DNA of 64,000 nt, taken from Patescibacteria group bacterium. Its GTDB lineage: Bacteria > Patescibacteriota > Patescibacteriia > JAXHNJ01. Both the position numbers and the translations under genes were made by a program. The stretch covers positions 130,579-194,578 of the forward strand of contig JAXHNJ010000001.1 in NCBI GenBank assembly GCA_034520665.1, given 5' to 3'. Below are positions 13,322 through 43,809 of this stretch, one piece after another. How positions within the stretch are numbered: the first letter of the stretch is position 1; each line of letters begins with the position of its first letter. The notes under the pieces are model-generated. The model searched no databases and had not been told where the DNA came from. It saw only the letters and a program-made list of their open reading frames with translations.

Positions 13322-15901
13322 ATGTATATTTTTTTACAAGCCTTACTAGATCCTGACAGCGGTGCTTTGCCGACAGTTAATACTATCAAAGACCAAGAAA
13401 ATGGATTTCTGGCTCATCCAGTAATTGGGGCTATTTTTTATATTATTTTATTTTTATTTATTCTGGCGGTGGCAGCTTTTATTATTCGTTATTTTATGCG
13501 ACGCAAATACTATCGCTCTGATTCTTTAAGGCGTGATATAATGCTGGTCACCTTGCCTAAGGAAAGAACCCAGGAAGAAAAAGAAGGCCAGCCCGAATCA
13601 AATATTCAGGAAATGATTGATCAAGTAGAAGTTTGGTACGCCAATATGGGCGGCATGAGAGCCCAGAGGGGGTTAAAGGCTTTTTTCCGTGGCCGGCAGG
13701 ATTTTTTCTCTTTAGAAATAGTGGCTCATGAAGGCTTAATTTCTTTTTATGTGGTCACACCCCATTATTTACAAAATTACATGGAAGAGCAAATTCACGC
13801 CCAGTTTCCCAAAGCCAATATTGAAATAGTGGAAGACCATAATATATTTAAGCCGGATAGTCAGGTGACGGCTACTAATTTAGTTTTTAGGAAAAAATTT
13901 ATATTTCCGATTAAAACCTATAGACATATTGATACAGATCCCTTGAGTGCTTTAACTAACACTCTCTCCAAGTTAGATAATGATGAAGGAGCGGTTATTC
14001 AATTTATTTGTCGGAGTGCTAAGGGTCAGTGGCACAACCAGGGAGCCAAAGTAGCCCGGAAAATGCACGAAGGTAAAAAATTAAAAGAAGCTACTGGAGG
14101 AAGCAGTCGTTTTTTTAATGTTATCAGGGAAATTTATCGGATTTTTGTGCCCAAGAAAGAAGAACAACCTCAAACCCCGGGCCTGGTACAGTTATCAGCC
14201 CGTGATGAAGAAATAGCCAAAAGTATTGAAGAAAAAACCTCGCGAGCTGGTTTTGATGTCAACGTAAGATTAATAGTTTCCTCTAAAACTAAACAAAGAG
14301 CCAATCATATTTTAAAAGGTATTATTGATTCATTTAACCAATATACTCTTTACGAATACGGGAACGGATTTACTAAAAAGGGTTCTTTTAAAATGAATAA
14401 ATTAATCGAGCACTATATCTATCGTACTTTTGATGAAAAAAGAAAGGTAATTTTAAATACCGAAGAAATGGCCAGTTTATTCCATTTTCCTTTAAGTATT
14501 ACTGAAACTCCCAATATTCGCTGGCTGGAAGCTAGAAAAGCCCCAGCTCCGATAAATATTCCAAAAGAAGGTATAATTTTAGGTAAGAATGTTTACCGTA
14601 ATGTAGAAAAGGAAATCCGCATGAAAGTAGAAGACAGGAGAAGACACGCTTATCTTATTGGTATGACCGGTACTGGTAAGTCAGCTTTAATGGAAGAAAT
14701 GGCTAAGCAGGATATTGCCAAAGGCCGGGGGGTTTGCTTGGTCGATCCTCACGGAGATTTAGTGGAAAATGTTTTGCGTTGTGTGCCTAAAGAAAGAGCG
14801 GATGATGTTATAATATTTGATCCATCTGATACAGAGAGACCGATGGGTCTAAATATGCTGGAAGCTAAAGATCCGGCCGAAGCTGATTTTGCGGTTCAGG
14901 AAATGATTGCTATTTTTCATAAACTTTTTCCGCCGGAAATGATTGGCCCTATGTTTGAGCACAATATGAGAAACGTGATGCTTACTTTAATCGCTGATAA
15001 AGAATACCCGGGTACTATTACTGATATTCCCCGGATGTTTTCTGATAAAGACTTTCAGGAGTATAAAGTTAAAAAAGTAGATGATCCTATAGTTAGATCT
15101 TTTTGGGAAAAAGAAATGGCTAAAACCTCGGACTTTCATAAGTCAGAAATGCTGGGTTACTTAATTTCCAAAGTTGGCCGTTTTGTGGAAAATAAAATGA
15201 TGAGAAACATTATTGGCCAATCCAGGTCCGGCTTTAATTTTGATAAAATAATGGATGAAAGTAAGATTTTATTAGTTAGTTTATCAAAGGGCAAAGTAGG
15301 GGAGGTCAATTCTAATTTACTGGGCTTAATTATTGTTTCTAAGCTGCAAATGGCGGCCATGGCCCGGGCTAAAATGCCAGAAGAAGAAAGAAAGGATTTT
15401 TATCTTTATATTGATGAGTTTCAAAATTTTATCACCGATTCTATTGCTACCATATTGTCTGAAGCTAGAAAATACCGGCTTAATTTAACTATGGCTCATC
15501 AGTATCTCGGGCAGTTGGTGGAAAAAGGCGATACTAAAATTAGAGACGCTGTTTTAGGTAATGTCGGCAGCATGATTTCTTTTAGAATTGGGGTTGATGA
15601 TGCGGAAATAATTGCTAAACAATTTTCTCCCACATTTAGTGAATATGACGTGACTAATATTCCTCGGTTTAATGCTTATGTTAAACTTCTAATTGATAAC
15701 AGTGCTTCCAAACCTTTTAATATGGCTACTTATCCGCCACAGCCAGGTAGCCGGGAAATAGCTGAAAAGATAAAAGAGCTCTCACGCCAAAAATTTGCCC
15801 GCCCCGTCAGTGAAGTTGATAGTGAAATTCTAAAAAGAACCAAACTAGGCTCAGAAAAACCAGAAGAGAAATCAATTAAAACTGATTCTGATAGAAAATA
15901 A
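13322..15901 (+). CDS. Membrane-anchored P-loop ATPase of the FtsK/HerA/TraD-VirD4 (type IV coupling protein-like) superfamily
   Basis: N-terminal TM helix (IFYIILFLFILAVAAFII). Walker A is AYLIGMTGTGKSALMEE and Walker B is FYLYIDEFQNF, with a sensor-like MAHQYLGQL. 859 aa. Confidence 0.65.
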   Translation: MYIFLQALLDPDSGALPTVNTIKDQENGFLAHPVIGAIFYIILFLFILAVAAFIIRYFMRRKYYRSDSLRRDIMLVTLPKERTQEEKEGQPESNIQEMIDQVEVWYANMGGMRAQRGLKAFFRGRQDFFSLEIVAHEGLISFYVVTPHYLQNYMEEQIHAQFPKANIEIVEDHNIFKPDSQVTATNLVFRKKFIFPIKTYRHIDTDPLSALTNTLSKLDNDEGAVIQFICRSAKGQWHNQGAKVARKMHEGKKLKEATGGSSRFFNVIREIYRIFVPKKEEQPQTPGLVQLSARDEEIAKSIEEKTSRAGFDVNVRLIVSSKTKQRANHILKGIIDSFNQYTLYEYGNGFTKKGSFKMNKLIEHYIYRTFDEKRKVILNTEEMASLFHFPLSITETPNIRWLEARKAPAPINIPKEGIILGKNVYRNVEKEIRMKVEDRRRHAYLIGMTGTGKSALMEEMAKQDIAKGRGVCLVDPHGDLVENVLRCVPKERADDVIIFDPSDTERPMGLNMLEAKDPAEADFAVQEMIAIFHKLFPPEMIGPMFEHNMRNVMLTLIADKEYPGTITDIPRMFSDKDFQEYKVKKVDDPIVRSFWEKEMAKTSDFHKSEMLGYLISKVGRFVENKMMRNIIGQSRSGFNFDKIMDESKILLVSLSKGKVGEVNSNLLGLIIVSKLQMAAMARAKMPEEERKDFYLYIDEFQNFITDSIATILSEARKYRLNLTMAHQYLGQLVEKGDTKIRDAVLGNVGSMISFRIGVDDAEIIAKQFSPTFSEYDVTNIPRFNAYVKLLIDNSASKPFNMATYPPQPGSREIAEKIKELSRQKFARPVSEVDSEILKRTKLGSEKPEEKSIKTDSDRK

Positions 15902-16176: not shown

Positions 16177-16713
16177 ATGCCTAAACAAAACAAAATTCAG
16201 CTGATAAAAAAATTAATTGATACAGCTCAAGACAGTATTGCCCAGGCCAAATCACTTTTAGCTGAGATGACTGGACAAGCCGGGTCCTCAAAAATGCAGG
16301 AACGAGCCAAGGAAGTGGGCAGCGTTGATATAAATGAAAATGAAAAAATAGTGGAAGGAGTTTTTGACGGACAGAGTATGATCGGACCGGACGGGAAAGA
16401 GTATTCCATTCCTGCTAACTACGCTTCAAAATCTAAATTAGTGGAGGGTGATGTTTTAAAGTTAACCATCATGCCGGATGGTTCTTTTGTTTACAAACAA
16501 ATTAGTCCGGTTGAACGTGACCGCAAAGTGGGCACCTTGATTAAGGATGAAACCACCGGAGATTTTAAAGTATTATCTGATGATAAAACCTATAATGTGC
16601 TTTTTGCTAGCGTTACCTATTATAAAGGCGGTGTCGGGGATGAAGCGGTTATTTTAGCGCCTCGCGAGGGAGACAGCACTTGGGCGGCCGTGGAAAATGT
16701 GATTAAAAAATAG
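16177..16713 (+). CDS. Hypothetical protein
   Basis: 178-aa ORF. No family recognised. Confidence 0.45.
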   Translation: MPKQNKIQLIKKLIDTAQDSIAQAKSLLAEMTGQAGSSKMQERAKEVGSVDINENEKIVEGVFDGQSMIGPDGKEYSIPANYASKSKLVEGDVLKLTIMPDGSFVYKQISPVERDRKVGTLIKDETTGDFKVLSDDKTYNVLFASVTYYKGGVGDEAVILAPREGDSTWAAVENVIKK

Positions 16714-16812: not shown

Positions 16813-18423
16813 ATGTCTTTGACTCTTTATCGTAAGTACCGGCCCAAGAATTTTGAAGAATTGGTCGGTCAAAACCACATCAAAGAAACCCTTTTAAATG
16901 AAATTAAAAGTAAAAACTGGGCTCATGCCTATCTTTTTAACGGTCCCAAAGGAGTGGGCAAGACGACCACGGCTCGTCTTTTAGCTAAGGCTGTTAACTG
17001 TCAGCAAAGAAAAGAGGGTGAGCCTTGTAATCAGTGTCAGGCTTGCCAGGAAATAATAAAAGGGCAGGCTTTGGACGTGATTGAAATAGACGCCGCTTCA
17101 CATACCCAGGTGGATAATATTCGGGAAAATATTATTCCCAACGCCCGCACTGTACCTTCAAGGCTGGATTATAAAGTCTTTATAATTGATGAAGTGCACA
17201 TGCTCTCATTATCTGCTTTTAACGCTCTGCTCAAGATACTGGAAGAACCCCCGGCCCATGTTATATTTATTCTGGCTACTACTGAGATTCATAAGCTACC
17301 GGAAACGATTATATCTAGATGCCAGAGATTTGATTTTCAAAATGTTAATCCAAGAGAGGTAAAAAAAAGACTGGAAAAAATTGCCAAAAAAGAAAAGATT
17401 AAAATTGATGACGAGGTTTTATTAACTATTGCTTCTTTGGCTGAAGGTTCAATTCGAGACGCTGAAGTTATACTGGGCCAGGTTTTTTCTCTAGGTGAGA
17501 AAAAAATAACCAAAGAAGTAGCTGAATTAGTTTTACCCCGTTCGAATTTTAAATTAATTTACCAGCTTTTTAAAGCCCTGATAAAAAAGGATAAGACTAA
17601 AAGCATTGAAATCATTAATCAATTGATAAAAGAAGGGGTTGATATTAAAAATTTCACCAAACAGTTTCTGGATTTTTTGCGCAAAGTTCTTTTAATAAAA
17701 GTAGATAAAAGACTGGAGAAATTCTCTTATTTTGAAGTTGAAGATAAATCAGAAGAGGATTTTTATAATTTTATTAAAAGAACGGACTTAAAGGTTTTAA
17801 ATTTAATGATAAATAAACTCTTAAAATACAAAAAAGAAATTAGCTATGTTTCTATACCTCAATTACCGCTGGAATTATTTGCTATAGACATATGTCACTT
17901 TGATGAGGAAAGTAAGCCAATTGATTTTAAAAATAATAATGATAATAATAGTCATTCTAGTCAAAAAAATACTTCATCTTTACCGAAAAAGAAAAGTGAG
18001 AGCTCCAAAGATAAAAATAAATCCAATATAAATACAGAAAGTCAAAAATTAAAATCAAATAAAAATACTCCAGTTTTAAAAAAAGCCTATCAAAAATGGC
18101 CTAATATTATTAGTCATTTAAATAAAAAAAATCATTCCTTAGCCTTAGTTTTAAAAAATTGCCAGCCCATAGAACATAAAGAGGATAAATTAATAATTGG
18201 CTGTAATTTTAAGTTTCATCAGGAAAGATTGAGTGATAATAAAAATATAGTTAAGATAGAAAAGGTAATTGGTAAATTTTTTAAAAAACCCTTGAGAATA
18301 AAATTTGTAATCAGTCAGGTTAATATTAACCGAAAGTCCAGTAAACTTGGGCAAAAAGATAAAAAAAATGAAGACTTTGAGGATGTTCTAAAATCATTTG
18401 ACGGGCAGGTTTTAAAAGCTTAA
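16813..18423 (+). CDS. dnaX: DNA polymerase III subunit gamma/tau
   Basis: YRKYRPKNFEELVGQ...GPKGVGKTT (Walker A), Cys zinc module CQQRKEGEPCNQCQAC, FIIDEVHML, SRCQRF. The C-terminus is K/N-rich. Confidence 0.9.
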   Translation: MSLTLYRKYRPKNFEELVGQNHIKETLLNEIKSKNWAHAYLFNGPKGVGKTTTARLLAKAVNCQQRKEGEPCNQCQACQEIIKGQALDVIEIDAASHTQVDNIRENIIPNARTVPSRLDYKVFIIDEVHMLSLSAFNALLKILEEPPAHVIFILATTEIHKLPETIISRCQRFDFQNVNPREVKKRLEKIAKKEKIKIDDEVLLTIASLAEGSIRDAEVILGQVFSLGEKKITKEVAELVLPRSNFKLIYQLFKALIKKDKTKSIEIINQLIKEGVDIKNFTKQFLDFLRKVLLIKVDKRLEKFSYFEVEDKSEEDFYNFIKRTDLKVLNLMINKLLKYKKEISYVSIPQLPLELFAIDICHFDEESKPIDFKNNNDNNSHSSQKNTSSLPKKKSESSKDKNKSNINTESQKLKSNKNTPVLKKAYQKWPNIISHLNKKNHSLALVLKNCQPIEHKEDKLIIGCNFKFHQERLSDNKNIVKIEKVIGKFFKKPLRIKFVISQVNINRKSSKLGQKDKKNEDFEDVLKSFDGQVLKA

Positions 18424-18547
18424 AAGAATAAAAACAAGTCGAGATCGTCTTCGCCCTTTAATTTTCTTTTGACTTATTTCCTTGGTTCAAGATCAATTTC
18501 GGGCTTCGGCCGATAAAATCTTAATACTAAAATATTATTACATAGTG

Positions 18548-18640
18548 GGGTCGTCTAATGGTCCCGCACCCAATTCTCGTTTTACTCGAATGGGGACGGG
18601 ATAAATAGGAGGCCTGATTCTGGTTCAGGTAATCCTGGTC
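18548..18640 (+). pseudogene. Degenerate partial copy of tRNA-Gln (5' acceptor/D region plus anticodon arm) with a ~45-nt insertion in the D-loop region and no T-arm or 3' acceptor
   Basis: ggggtcgtctaatgg...aggcctgattctggttcaggtaat is identical to the matching parts of the downstream tRNA-Gln. It lacks ttcgaatcc and a 3' acceptor strand. Confidence 0.4.
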
Positions 18641-18761
18641 CGCCCGCCAAAAATTTCTCGATCCGGGGTCGTCTAATGGCAGGACGCCTGATTCTGGTTC
18701 AGGTAATCTTGGTTCGAATCCAAGCCCCGGAGAAATTTTTAGGCGGGTGAAAATCCTGGTC
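18631..18761. mobile_element. MITE-like element carrying tRNA-Gln: 10-bp direct repeats (aatcctggtc at 18631-18640 and 18752-18761) flank a 111-bp segment bounded by ~18-bp inverted repeats
   Basis: IR-L gcccgccaaaaatttctc (18642-18659) and IR-R gagaaatttttaggcggg (18732-18747) are reverse complements with 1-2 mismatches, and they extend the tRNA acceptor stem. Confidence 0.4.
18662..18732 (+). tRNA. tRNA-Gln (anticodon CUG)
   Basis: Cloverleaf: acceptor tccgggg/ccccgga, D-arm cgtc..gacg, anticodon stem cctga/tcagg with loop ttCTGgt, T-arm cttgg-ttcgaat-ccaag. U1:A72 plus G73 discriminator fit bacterial tRNA-Gln identity. CCA is not encoded. Confidence 0.85.
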
Positions 18762-19136
18762 TCCCAGTTTTTTATTTAGGTTCGGCGCTGAAAGGTCTAT
18801 CTTAGCCAAAAAAGCAGAACCAATCTTCTAAAGTTGATCTATTAAATTTGATTTGATAACCCTTCATAAACTAAAATGTGGATTTTTTGTATTTGACATC
18901 AAATTTATGATAATTTAAACTAATAGTATACATTAATGCTTACTATTAGTTTATATATATAAAAAACTTGATTTTGAAAATTTATAAGGCACACCAGCCA
19001 GGACATTTTATAGCAGCTCTTCAGAAAAAACTAGCAAAAGAAGATATAAATATTACTTTCTTGGGAATAAATAGAAGGGGGACAAAGAGCTCTCTGAGGA
19101 GATTAGATAATCTTTTGAAGAAAATATAAATATAGA

Positions 19137-19165
19137 GCCGTTGTTTTAAACGACGGCTTTTTTAT
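19137..19165 (+). terminator. Hairpin plus T-tract, intrinsic-terminator-like, 15 nt upstream of the DUF523 start
   Basis: agccgttgtttt-aa-acgacggct followed by tttttat. Confidence 0.45.
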
Positions 19166-19179
19166 CATATAATTTTGAT

Positions 19180-19614
19180 ATGAATAATAAATGCAAACCA
19201 AAATTAATAAGTGCCTGTCTTTTGGGTATTAAATGCCGGTGGGATGCAAAATTTAAACCTTGCCAAAAAGCAATTGAATTATTTAAACAAGGCCAGGTTA
19301 TTCCCGTATGCCCGGAACAATTAGGAGGTTTGCCTACTCCTAGAATTCCCCAGGAGATTCAAAAAGACGGCAGAGTATTAAATAAAGAAGGGAGAGAAGT
19401 AACGGAGGAATTTAAAAAGGGAGCTAGCGAAACCTTAAGAATAGCCAAATTATTAGGAGTGAAAGAATTCATTGGTAAGTCAAAAAGTCCTTCTTGTGGT
19501 TTTGGCAAGACTTATGATGGTACTTTTTCGGGTACTTTAGTAAAAGGTAACGGAGTTACAGCAGATCTTTTATCTAAAAATGGTATAAAAGTAATAACGG
19601 AAAAAAATTTATAA
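19180..19614 (+). CDS. DUF523 family protein (YbbK/TudS-like)
   Basis: ISACLLGIKCRWDAK...VIPVCPEQLGGLPTPR...SPSCG matches the DUF523 Cys pattern. Confidence 0.65.
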   Translation: MNNKCKPKLISACLLGIKCRWDAKFKPCQKAIELFKQGQVIPVCPEQLGGLPTPRIPQEIQKDGRVLNKEGREVTEEFKKGASETLRIAKLLGVKEFIGKSKSPSCGFGKTYDGTFSGTLVKGNGVTADLLSKNGIKVITEKNL

Positions 19615-19619
19615 GGAAA

Positions 19620-20107
19620 TCATTACTCCTGGTGTCTGGGGTCCTCTTGTACTTCTTTTCAGTTTAGTTATTTACGAACCTCTGAAAAATTACTTCGAAA
19701 ATCTTGCCAACAAATACTTCTTTGCCAGTATTTACAACTACCAGGCTACTCTGGAAAAACTGGCCCAGGAACTGACTCATTCTATTGACTTAGACCAAAT
19801 CATTGACTCCATTGTCAAAACTATTAGAGAAACCATGAAACTGGACCGGACTGGTGTTTTATTATTTGACCAAGAAACCTATAATTACCAGGTTAAGAGT
19901 AATATTGGCTTTTCCGTAGCCAATGGTATTTCTCTAGTTAGAAATAACTTCCTCACTAATTATTTATTAAAAAAAAGAAAACCAGTTATTTACCAAGAAC
20001 TGGAGTCTTTAAAAAGTAACGGCCATGGTGATCGCTCAGAGATTGGCAAGCTTAAGGCTAATATGAAAAAAATTGAAGCGGCTTTGTGTTTGCCTTTGGT
20101 TAAATAA
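19620..20107 (+). pseudogene. Duplicated internal fragment (~490 bp) of the sensor histidine kinase gene; copy of 28940..29427
   Basis: Nucleotide alignment is colinear with high identity by eye (roughly 85-90%). ORF 19835..20107 translates to MKLDRTGVLLFDQETYNYQVKSNIGFSVANGISLVRNNFLTNYLL..., nearly identical to residues of the 28150..30420 protein. Confidence 0.8.
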
Positions 20108-43519: not shown

Positions 43520-43675
43520 TTACAAAAAACCTTTATTGTAAGCCACCAAAGAAATTTGAATGGTCGGGGTACTGGGATTTATCCGACAAAGCCTGCCTGT
43601 GGCAGACAAGGCGGATCCCCTAAAGGGGGAAACTCTTAATTTCTTATTTTTAAAAAAAATGATACTAAAATAATT

Positions 43676-43715
43676 TGGTCGGGGTAGCCTCCCTTCGGGA
43701 GACGACCTCATCGTC
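43676..43715 (-). repeat. Partial duplicate of the 3' end of tRNA-Pro (acceptor 3' strand plus the 5' side of the T-arm region, with the T-loop replaced by a ctcccgaagggag hairpin)
   Basis: tggtcggggtagcc and cgacctcatcgtc are identical to 43734-43747 and 43761-43773 of the tRNA gene. Located 18 bp from the tRNA 3' end. Confidence 0.6.
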
Positions 43716-43733
43716 ACTTGTCTGCCATGGGCT

Positions 43734-43809
43734 TGGTCGGGGTAGCCAGACTTGAACTGGCGACCTCATCGTCCCGAACGATGCGCGCTACCAACTGCGC
43801 CATACCCCG
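43734..43809 (-). tRNA. tRNA-Pro (anticodon CGG), CCA encoded
   Basis: Minus-strand sequence CGGGGTA-TG-GCGC-AGTTGGTA-GCGC-G-CATCG-TTCGGGA-CGATG-AGGTC-GCCAG-TTCAAGT-CTGGC-TACCCCG-A-CCA. Same architecture and identity elements (C1:G72, A73) as E. coli tRNA-Pro(CGG). Confidence 0.85.

Follow-up and report, generated by a model that had tools for sequence, protein, structure and literature searches.

Analysis of the region downstream of dnaX in a Patescibacteria genome (G+C ~33%) revealed that an intact tRNA-Gln gene lies in the T loop of a second tRNA-Gln gene, whose remains, hereafter called the shell, enclose it on both sides and carry a 45-nt GC hairpin in the D loop. The parts follow in the order shell 5' part, leader, intact tRNA, trailer and shell 3' part; the shell itself comprises 18544-18640 and 18748-18767 of the window, by which we mean the whole stretch of 64,000 nucleotides that was analyzed. 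This nested arrangement recurs just 3' of dnaX in many Patescibacteria, a group of ultra-small bacteria, and the window holds its local form; such nesting is a recurring remodelling of an essential single-copy gene, not a classic jumping element. Related loci are designated by L numbers, and the features of the window are as follows.

16813-18423, plus strand: dnaX (DNA polymerase III gamma/tau), an ORF with Pfam matches DNA_pol3_delta2 and DNA_pol3_gamma3
18438-18450, plus strand: TCGAGATCGTCT, a short 5' piece of another tRNA-Gln allele (TGCGAGA type), 11/11 identical to positions 3-13 of the L082 tRNA-Gln
18544-18561, plus strand: shell, with degenerate acceptor 5' strand AGTGGGG, TC, D-stem 5' strand GTCT and D-loop start AATGG (sequence; covariance model)
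18562-18606, plus strand: GC-clamped hairpin in the shell D loop (TCCCGCAC...GGACGGGA, then TAAAT), whose base and tail recur in relatives
18607-18640, plus strand: shell, with D-stem 3' strand GGAG (G10.G25), intact anticodon arm (CTG 18620-18622), variable loop TAAT, T-stem 5' strand CCTGG and TC; matches L082 and holds repeat copy 1
18641-18661, plus strand: leader arm, with GC clamp CCCGCC (18643-18648), AAAAATTTCTC (18649-18659), then GA (duplex energy; junction homologous in L103)
18662-18732, plus strand: inner tRNA-Gln(CUG), intact, anticodon 18694-18696, no encoded CCA (ARAGORN and Rfam)
18733-18747, plus strand: trailer arm, with AAATTTTT, unpaired A (18741) and GGCGGG (sequence, fold)
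18748-18767, plus strand: shell 3' part, with T-loop remainder TGAAAAT, T-stem 3' strand CCTGG, acceptor 3' strand TCTCCCA and G73; matches L085 and holds repeat copy 2
18768-18773, plus strand: T6 run right after the shell, a probable transcript end (sequence)

The inner tRNA-Gln (18662-18732) is the working gene of the locus. ARAGORN detected two tRNAs in the window and called this one tRNA-Gln(CUG), and Rfam RF00005 matched it as a cloverleaf at 59.3 bits (E=1.1e-11; threshold 29), which bears out the intact tRNA-Gln(CUG) of an earlier sequence-only reading of the locus. A search of 17500-20000 against Rfam at permissive threshold (E up to 10) returned nothing credible besides this tRNA, and at gathering threshold 14 related loci yielded tRNA only, with no SRP RNA, tmRNA, group I intron or other family. 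The dnaX gene is followed by a same-strand tRNA-Gln in 27 of the 52 related loci scanned; therefore the dnaX-adjacent site is the ancestral place of tRNA-Gln. Scanning for sigma-70-like promoters between dnaX and the tRNA found none, so that co-transcription with dnaX is plausible. T runs after G73 are also present in L082, L084, L094 and L002; a simple terminator scan did not call the T6 run at 18768-18773. Farther downstream, a strong terminator-like hairpin (19134-19160; 12 pairs and a T run) with a weak L20-leader-like Rfam match (23.9 bits, below threshold) stands just before a 2-thiouracil desulfurase-family gene (19180-19614). Upstream of dnaX are a gene for a DUF8128 / T4SS coupling-protein-like ATPase (13322-15901) and then one for a 178-aa protein with no Pfam match (16177-16713), and the order ATPase, 178-aa protein, dnaX is also found in L084-L090.

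The sequence-only reading had placed a disrupted tRNA-Gln copy just upstream of the intact gene. A tRNA-Gln-like sequence is indeed located there, but it also continues downstream and so surrounds the intact gene. The two genes share GGGGTCGTCTAATGG and the whole 17-nt anticodon arm, as had been claimed for their 5' and anticodon arms, and the insertion of ~45 nt in the D loop was confirmed at 18562-18606, after AATGG. The statement that the copy has no T arm proved wrong: the T-stem 5' strand is at 18634-18638, and the rest of the T loop, the T-stem 3' strand, the acceptor 3' strand and G73 are at 18748-18767, beyond the intact tRNA. The base of the D-loop hairpin and its TAAAT tail also occur in L087, L092/94/95/99, L100, L097, L093 and L105, with loop sequences that vary by lineage. 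A covariance model of the shell 5' domain (R1), built from five other lineages with the window left out, matched 18544-18617 over its full length including the hairpin (43.8 bits, E=2.6e-10); ordinary tRNA-Gln genes reached 22-32 bits with the hairpin skipped. The window thus carries the whole 5' domain of what we term a nested tRNA-Gln shell with D-loop hairpin, a class defined in this analysis: the acceptor strand, TCGTCTAATGG, the GC hairpin, TAAAT and the D-stem 3' strand. The acceptor of the other nine shells is fully paired, and that of the window is not complementary throughout, AGTGGGG facing TCTCCCA (18760-18766) with two mismatches and two G.U pairs. In addition, G10 is unpaired opposite G25, the T stem contains a U.U, and the canonical T loop is absent. 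ARAGORN and Rfam gave no tRNA call on the shell as it stands, and no tRNA gene was called after its insertions had been removed in silico. Judged from its sequence, the window shell is chimeric and degenerate and not a working tRNA in this genome, because of the mismatched acceptor, the unpaired G10.G25, the U.U in the T stem and the lack of a canonical T loop. The fragment TCGAGATCGTCT begins 15 nt after the dnaX stop codon, and TCGCCC comes next, as it does in the shell of L004; the fragment may be what is left of a third layer on the outside.

The terminal inverted repeat that had been described around the inner gene is present as arms at 18642-18659 and 18730-18747, but its complementarity is imperfect, with 11 perfect pairs (18649-18659 and 18730-18740), the unpaired A (18741) and then CCCGCC/GGCGGG; within the inner tRNA, the final two acceptor bases and the discriminator are also part of the 3' arm. 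The energy of this duplex was -34.9 kcal/mol, compared with -16.2 +/- 3.7 for shuffles, and the region as a whole folded well below shuffled sequence (z = -5.5), with a predicted long helix enclosing the cloverleaf. Pairing between leader and trailer was well below shuffled controls in most nested loci, often in the form AAAAC-tRNA-GTTTT, and was detected as well at two un-nested tRNA-Gln genes, L084 and L018, although their sequences are unrelated. Because similar helices of unrelated sequence flank tRNA-Gln elsewhere, including these un-nested genes, the closing helix (17-18 bp) behaves as a putative RNA-level or terminator-level feature of a tRNA cassette and not, as had been proposed, as the ends of a transposon.

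The 10-bp direct repeat AATCCTGGTC occurs exactly twice in the window, as reported earlier (18631-18640 and 18752-18761), against an expected count of 0.13, and two copies were reached in 1 of 100 shuffles. It had been taken as a target site duplication; however, the two copies are the two strands of the shell T stem (CCTGG on both, a stem that reads alike on either strand) together with conserved tRNA neighbours. Both copies are composed of AAT, CCTGG and TC: the first consists of the variable loop, the T-stem 5' strand and the start of the T loop, its last base alone differing from the L082 resident tRNA, and the second of the end of the T loop, the T-stem 3' strand and the start of the acceptor. 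If the segment were deleted together with one copy of the repeat, the remaining gene would have no T loop, and because such an "empty site" would lack this loop the repeat is not a target duplication. A homologous T-loop insertion in L103, with the T stem ATAGG/CCTAT, has no direct repeat, and other insertions leave canonical loops without any duplication (TTC/GAAT in L085, TTCG/AAT in L105). With the repeat made up of tRNA parts, its absence from L103 and no second copy of the arms, the signature of a transposon with target duplication and inverted ends was not supported. What did hold was the suggestion that the locus has been remodelled, since a discrete segment of ~107 nt with a complete tRNA-Gln sits inside an older tRNA-Gln gene. 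Searches in the 64-kb window found no other copy of the arm with up to three mismatches and no dispersal of the GC-hairpin motifs; tblastn detected neither a homologue of the recombinase queries nor the downstream genes usual in relatives (DUF5656, HtrA-like, GtrA), and Pfam revealed no mobile-element genes among the downstream ORFs. A comparison of the shell pattern with viral contigs gave no match.

Of the 12 closest DnaX lineages, the window included, five have nested tRNA-Gln (the window, L087, L103, L104 and L105), and the others have a single gene (L082, L084, L085, L086, L088, L090 and L101); more distant nested loci are L002, L004, L005 and L015. A metagenome scan, which used the junction of the D loop and its hairpin as pattern and therefore fixed the 5' strand of the hairpin, added the nested loci L092/94/95/99, L093/96, L097 and L100, and wherever dnaX was on the contig (all but L093/L096) the shell directly follows it. 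Two of the ten matches, L091 and L098, were discarded as they look like chance, with no shell or tRNA-Gln structure around the match. Across loci the inner gene is positioned in the anticodon loop or the T loop; in most loci of the metagenome scan an inner tRNA (CUG or UUG) replaces the shell anticodon loop, and L103, like the window, has it in the T loop. The ends of the L103 and window insertions are homologous, sharing the GC clamp, an AT helix with one unpaired A, TGAAAAT, the T-stem 3' strand and TCTCCCAG, and the motif TGAAAAT-CCTnn-TCTCCCAG is common to the window shell 3' part and layer 2 of L103. Three layers are present in L097 and L103, where an intact tRNA-Gln is enclosed in a shell that is itself enclosed in the remains of a further shell, the layers being different tRNA-Gln alleles (L097, 2276-2720; L103, 3245-3685). 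In the nested loci, tRNA finders recognize only the inner genes as tRNA.

Comparison of alleles revealed a mosaic. The stretch 18606-18639 corresponds to positions 19-52 of the single tRNA-Gln of L082 (33/34 identical), the closest relative, which has 81% DnaX identity and a plain single gene, and 18752-18767 agrees at 16/16 positions with the 3' end of the L085 tRNA-Gln, likewise a single gene. Because its pieces match the L082 and L085 alleles, the window shell is chimeric. The 3' end of the inner gene, in turn, equals a fragment downstream of the L082 tRNA, and 3' fragments whose T loop contains GC hairpins lie downstream in L082, L085, L008, L027, L095 and L097. Large serine recombinase genes abut the tRNA-Gln or the shell 3' end in L090 and L099, a small resolvase is near the locus in L082, and four related strains are identical through the 5' shell, the inner tRNA and the trailer, with divergence starting at the T arm. 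As to an integrase att-site duplication, the window has a 3' fragment, only 107 nt between the repeats and no recombinase. In L085 (4129-4581), the tRNA-Gln is followed by a tandem array with a period of 63 and then 82, 100% matches and an assembly gap inside; its unit consists of the tRNA-Gln 3' end, a spacer, GGTTC and two or three GC hairpins, and CCA follows the last unit only. L092, L095 and L099 share the motif GACCGAGAC 25-35 nt after the shell 3' end, with downstream DNA that is otherwise different, and this motif may mark where elements of an integrating family end. The other tRNA of the window, tRNA-Pro(CGG) (43561-43809, minus strand), is followed by two 3' fragments, each ending in TACCCCGACCA (three copies against 0.01 expected); in these fragments GC hairpins stand in place of the T arm or break it up, and a hairpin with the acceptor 5' strand is located just upstream. 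Since tRNA-Pro has two of them, tRNA-derived fragments are not peculiar to tRNA-Gln in this genome.

We lean towards the explanation that a tRNA-Gln cassette was inserted into a loop of a resident gene at a recombination hot spot, with the inner gene at work and the window shell a decaying chimera. The nested anatomy, the dnaX synteny, the recurrence in other lineages, the match to the covariance model, the mosaic alleles, the recombinases near the locus in relatives and the lack of dispersal all favor it. The cassette, i.e., the tRNA-Gln and its closing helix, would enter the loop of a resident tRNA-Gln at the DNA level, the locus being a hot spot for site-specific recombination, and would assume the function of the gene into which it had inserted; subsequent exchanges at the 3' end would make the window shell a chimera, with a 5' and middle part like the L082 resident allele and a 3' end from another allele. 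The locus is probably transcribed together with dnaX, the inner tRNA would be released as the only decoder by RNase P and either RNase Z or trimming of the 3' end with CCA addition, and the transcript probably ends at the T6 run. Against this explanation, the window contains no recombinase or transposase near the locus, so that the mechanism of insertion is inferred; the plain single gene of L082 means that the history needs loss or lateral gain; and several shells look selected, their acceptors stay complementary and their insertions all lie in loops.

Other origins fit less well. The sequence-only reading pointed to a small transposable element; this would be a 111-bp MITE-like non-autonomous element with a tRNA as cargo, which entered an older tRNA-Gln with a 10-bp target duplication. 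The unit of ~107-111 nt is discrete and has inverted ends, similar-sized units are found in different loops by lineage (anticodon loop or T loop), their presence is patchy among close relatives, the multi-layer nests imply repeated insertion, and an end motif, CCCCGCAC...GTGCGGGG with T(G)AAA(A)T, is common to D-loop and T-loop insertions. We nevertheless regard such an element as improbable: tRNA parts of two alleles account for the repeat base by base, the homologous L103 insertion lacks it and other insertions came without duplication, neither arm nor hairpin motif recurs in 64 kb, the helix sequences differ by lineage with hairpin interiors that diverged along with their hosts, and no transposase is nearby. 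More improbable still is an interrupted functional tRNA whose loop insertions, one with a tRNA, are removed from the RNA and whose exons are joined, a bacterial counterpart of archaeal multi-intron tRNAs. Deleting the insertions does restore canonical loops in several shells (CT/CTGAA in L005, TT/CTGGC in L004, and AATGG/TAGGAC D loops), layer 2 of L103 becomes a tRNA-Gln(CUG) for ARAGORN once its T-loop insertion is removed, and the window shell retains an intact CUG anticodon arm. Yet inspection by eye revealed no bulge-helix-bulge at any junction (internal loops of 4-10 nt against 2-7 nt, not 3-4bp-3), the shells of L094, L100, L097 and L093 lack an anticodon, the universal U55 and C56 are missing from TGAAAAT, the T loop that remains in the window and L103, the spliced shell of the window is not recognized as a tRNA, and where an anticodon is readable the shell never adds an isoacceptor missing from the inner gene. 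RNA-level splicing is therefore unlikely, and no group I intron or other Rfam match was found; a group I intron was rejected also in its own right, as the insertions measure only 45 and 107 nt against at least 200 nt and gave no Rfam match at E up to 10. Scarcely credible is the idea that tRNA-Gln was simply duplicated in tandem at this site and then decayed at random, with inverted and direct repeats arising by chance. Inner and outer copies do have 15 nt of 5' end and a 17-nt anticodon arm in common, and those of L015 have the same acceptor and T stem; however, the outer 3' end derives from another allele than the inner gene, the inner gene is a UUG isoacceptor unlike the shell in L092/94/95/99 and L100, and the same architecture with a conserved D hairpin extends across lineages. 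Simple tandem duplication was rejected on the order of the parts, whose topology is nested and not tandem.

A serious alternative, although we consider it unlikely, is that the shell is itself a functional structured RNA, an L-shaped tRNA-like scaffold with extra arms in the D, anticodon or T loops, one of which carries a tRNA; its role would be to process or stabilize the dnaX-tRNA transcript, or to offer integrating elements a harmless attachment site so that the essential inner tRNA is spared. The shell 5' part (86 nt) was identical at 86/86 positions in L092, L094, L095 and L099, despite dnaX four-fold sites that are only 53% identical and an upstream 60 nt with 47/60 identical; between L094 and L100 this part was identical at 70/86 positions, with 37% identity at four-fold sites (saturated synonymous divergence). 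Shell acceptors differ between lineages yet are fully complementary in nine lineages, with 4/7 pairs changed on both sides, and an A-T pair of the D-hairpin stem is flipped to T-A in L105, a locus found through DnaX and independent of the search pattern. Minimum-energy folds closed the shell acceptor in L094, L100, L097, L093 and L002, all insertions lie in loops, and integrating elements exchange only the shell 3' part. In view of these features several shells look selected and not dead, and a functional shell RNA accounts for this no less well than a relic would. On the other hand, the minimum-energy fold left the window acceptor open, with D and T stems mismatched, the closest relatives L082, L084 and L085 do without any shell, and the acceptor variants also exist as ordinary tRNA-Gln alleles, so that the covariation may be inherited and not maintained; the sequence names no function. 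Because the hairpin interiors have diverged between lineages, the shell hairpin is not a recently spreading identical element. It is possible, and we put it forward tentatively, that the loci constitute an undescribed class of nested tRNA genes in Patescibacteria, in which a shell under purifying selection hosts a working tRNA-Gln in its loop. Such a shell might be a new functional tRNA-like RNA (a processing scaffold or decoy attachment site), or the whole a self-compensating selfish cassette that invades the loops of a tRNA gene that is essential and present once, and supplies a substitute for it.

It would be new for a complete tRNA to occupy a loop of another tRNA-like gene and to do so repeatedly at a single conserved locus, in up to three layers; a literature search returned no report of bacterial tRNA genes nested in one another, nor of any tRNA introns in Patescibacteria, and to our knowledge group I introns are the only cause of disrupted tRNA genes known in Bacteria. 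Nesting could be one way for a genome with single-copy tRNA genes to survive repeated recombination at them. Since tRNA finders report the inner gene only, nested loci go unnoticed in annotation. The arrangement also raises the questions of whether shell RNA is stable, what binds the conserved hairpin and whether the shell serves as a sacrificial attachment site.

Compared with MITEs, the inserted segment is likewise a short unit with inverted ends and no coding capacity; in contrast to them, the locus has no genuine target duplication, the unit is single-copy in 64 kb, its ends are not a conserved family, and its cargo is an essential gene. Transfer RNA genes are integration hot spots, with displaced tRNA 3' fragments as the att-site repeats of integrases, of which work by Williams in 2002 is reportedly an example. 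The dnaX-tRNA-Gln locus resembles these in its tRNA 3'-end fragments downstream of an intact gene (18748-18767 in the window; L082, L085, L008 and L027), in the serine recombinase genes directly beside the locus in L090, L099 and L082, and in strains that differ from the T arm onward. It differs in that 5' fragments stand upstream, a complete gene lies between the halves of another, the repeats enclose ~107 nt and no island, GC hairpins occupy T and D loops, and the window has no integrase. Disrupted tRNA genes, i.e., multiple-intron, split and permuted ones, have been described in Archaea and algae (PMC4090602, PMC3978253, PMC3218864). Like them, the nested loci have insertions at several loop positions of one gene, helices that close the insertions and some deletions that restore canonical loops; unlike them, they belong to a bacterium, lack bulge-helix-bulge motifs and any indication of splicing, and contain as insertion a whole tRNA of the same specificity, with several shells devoid of an anticodon.

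RNAs inside RNA genes are also known, examples being a box C/D RNA located within the tRNA-Trp intron of archaea and a tRNA contained in GOLLD RNA. Whereas host and guest are both tRNA-Gln-like in the nested loci and no Rfam family covers the host, the likeness to these systems is that one functional RNA would be released from a larger structured transcript.
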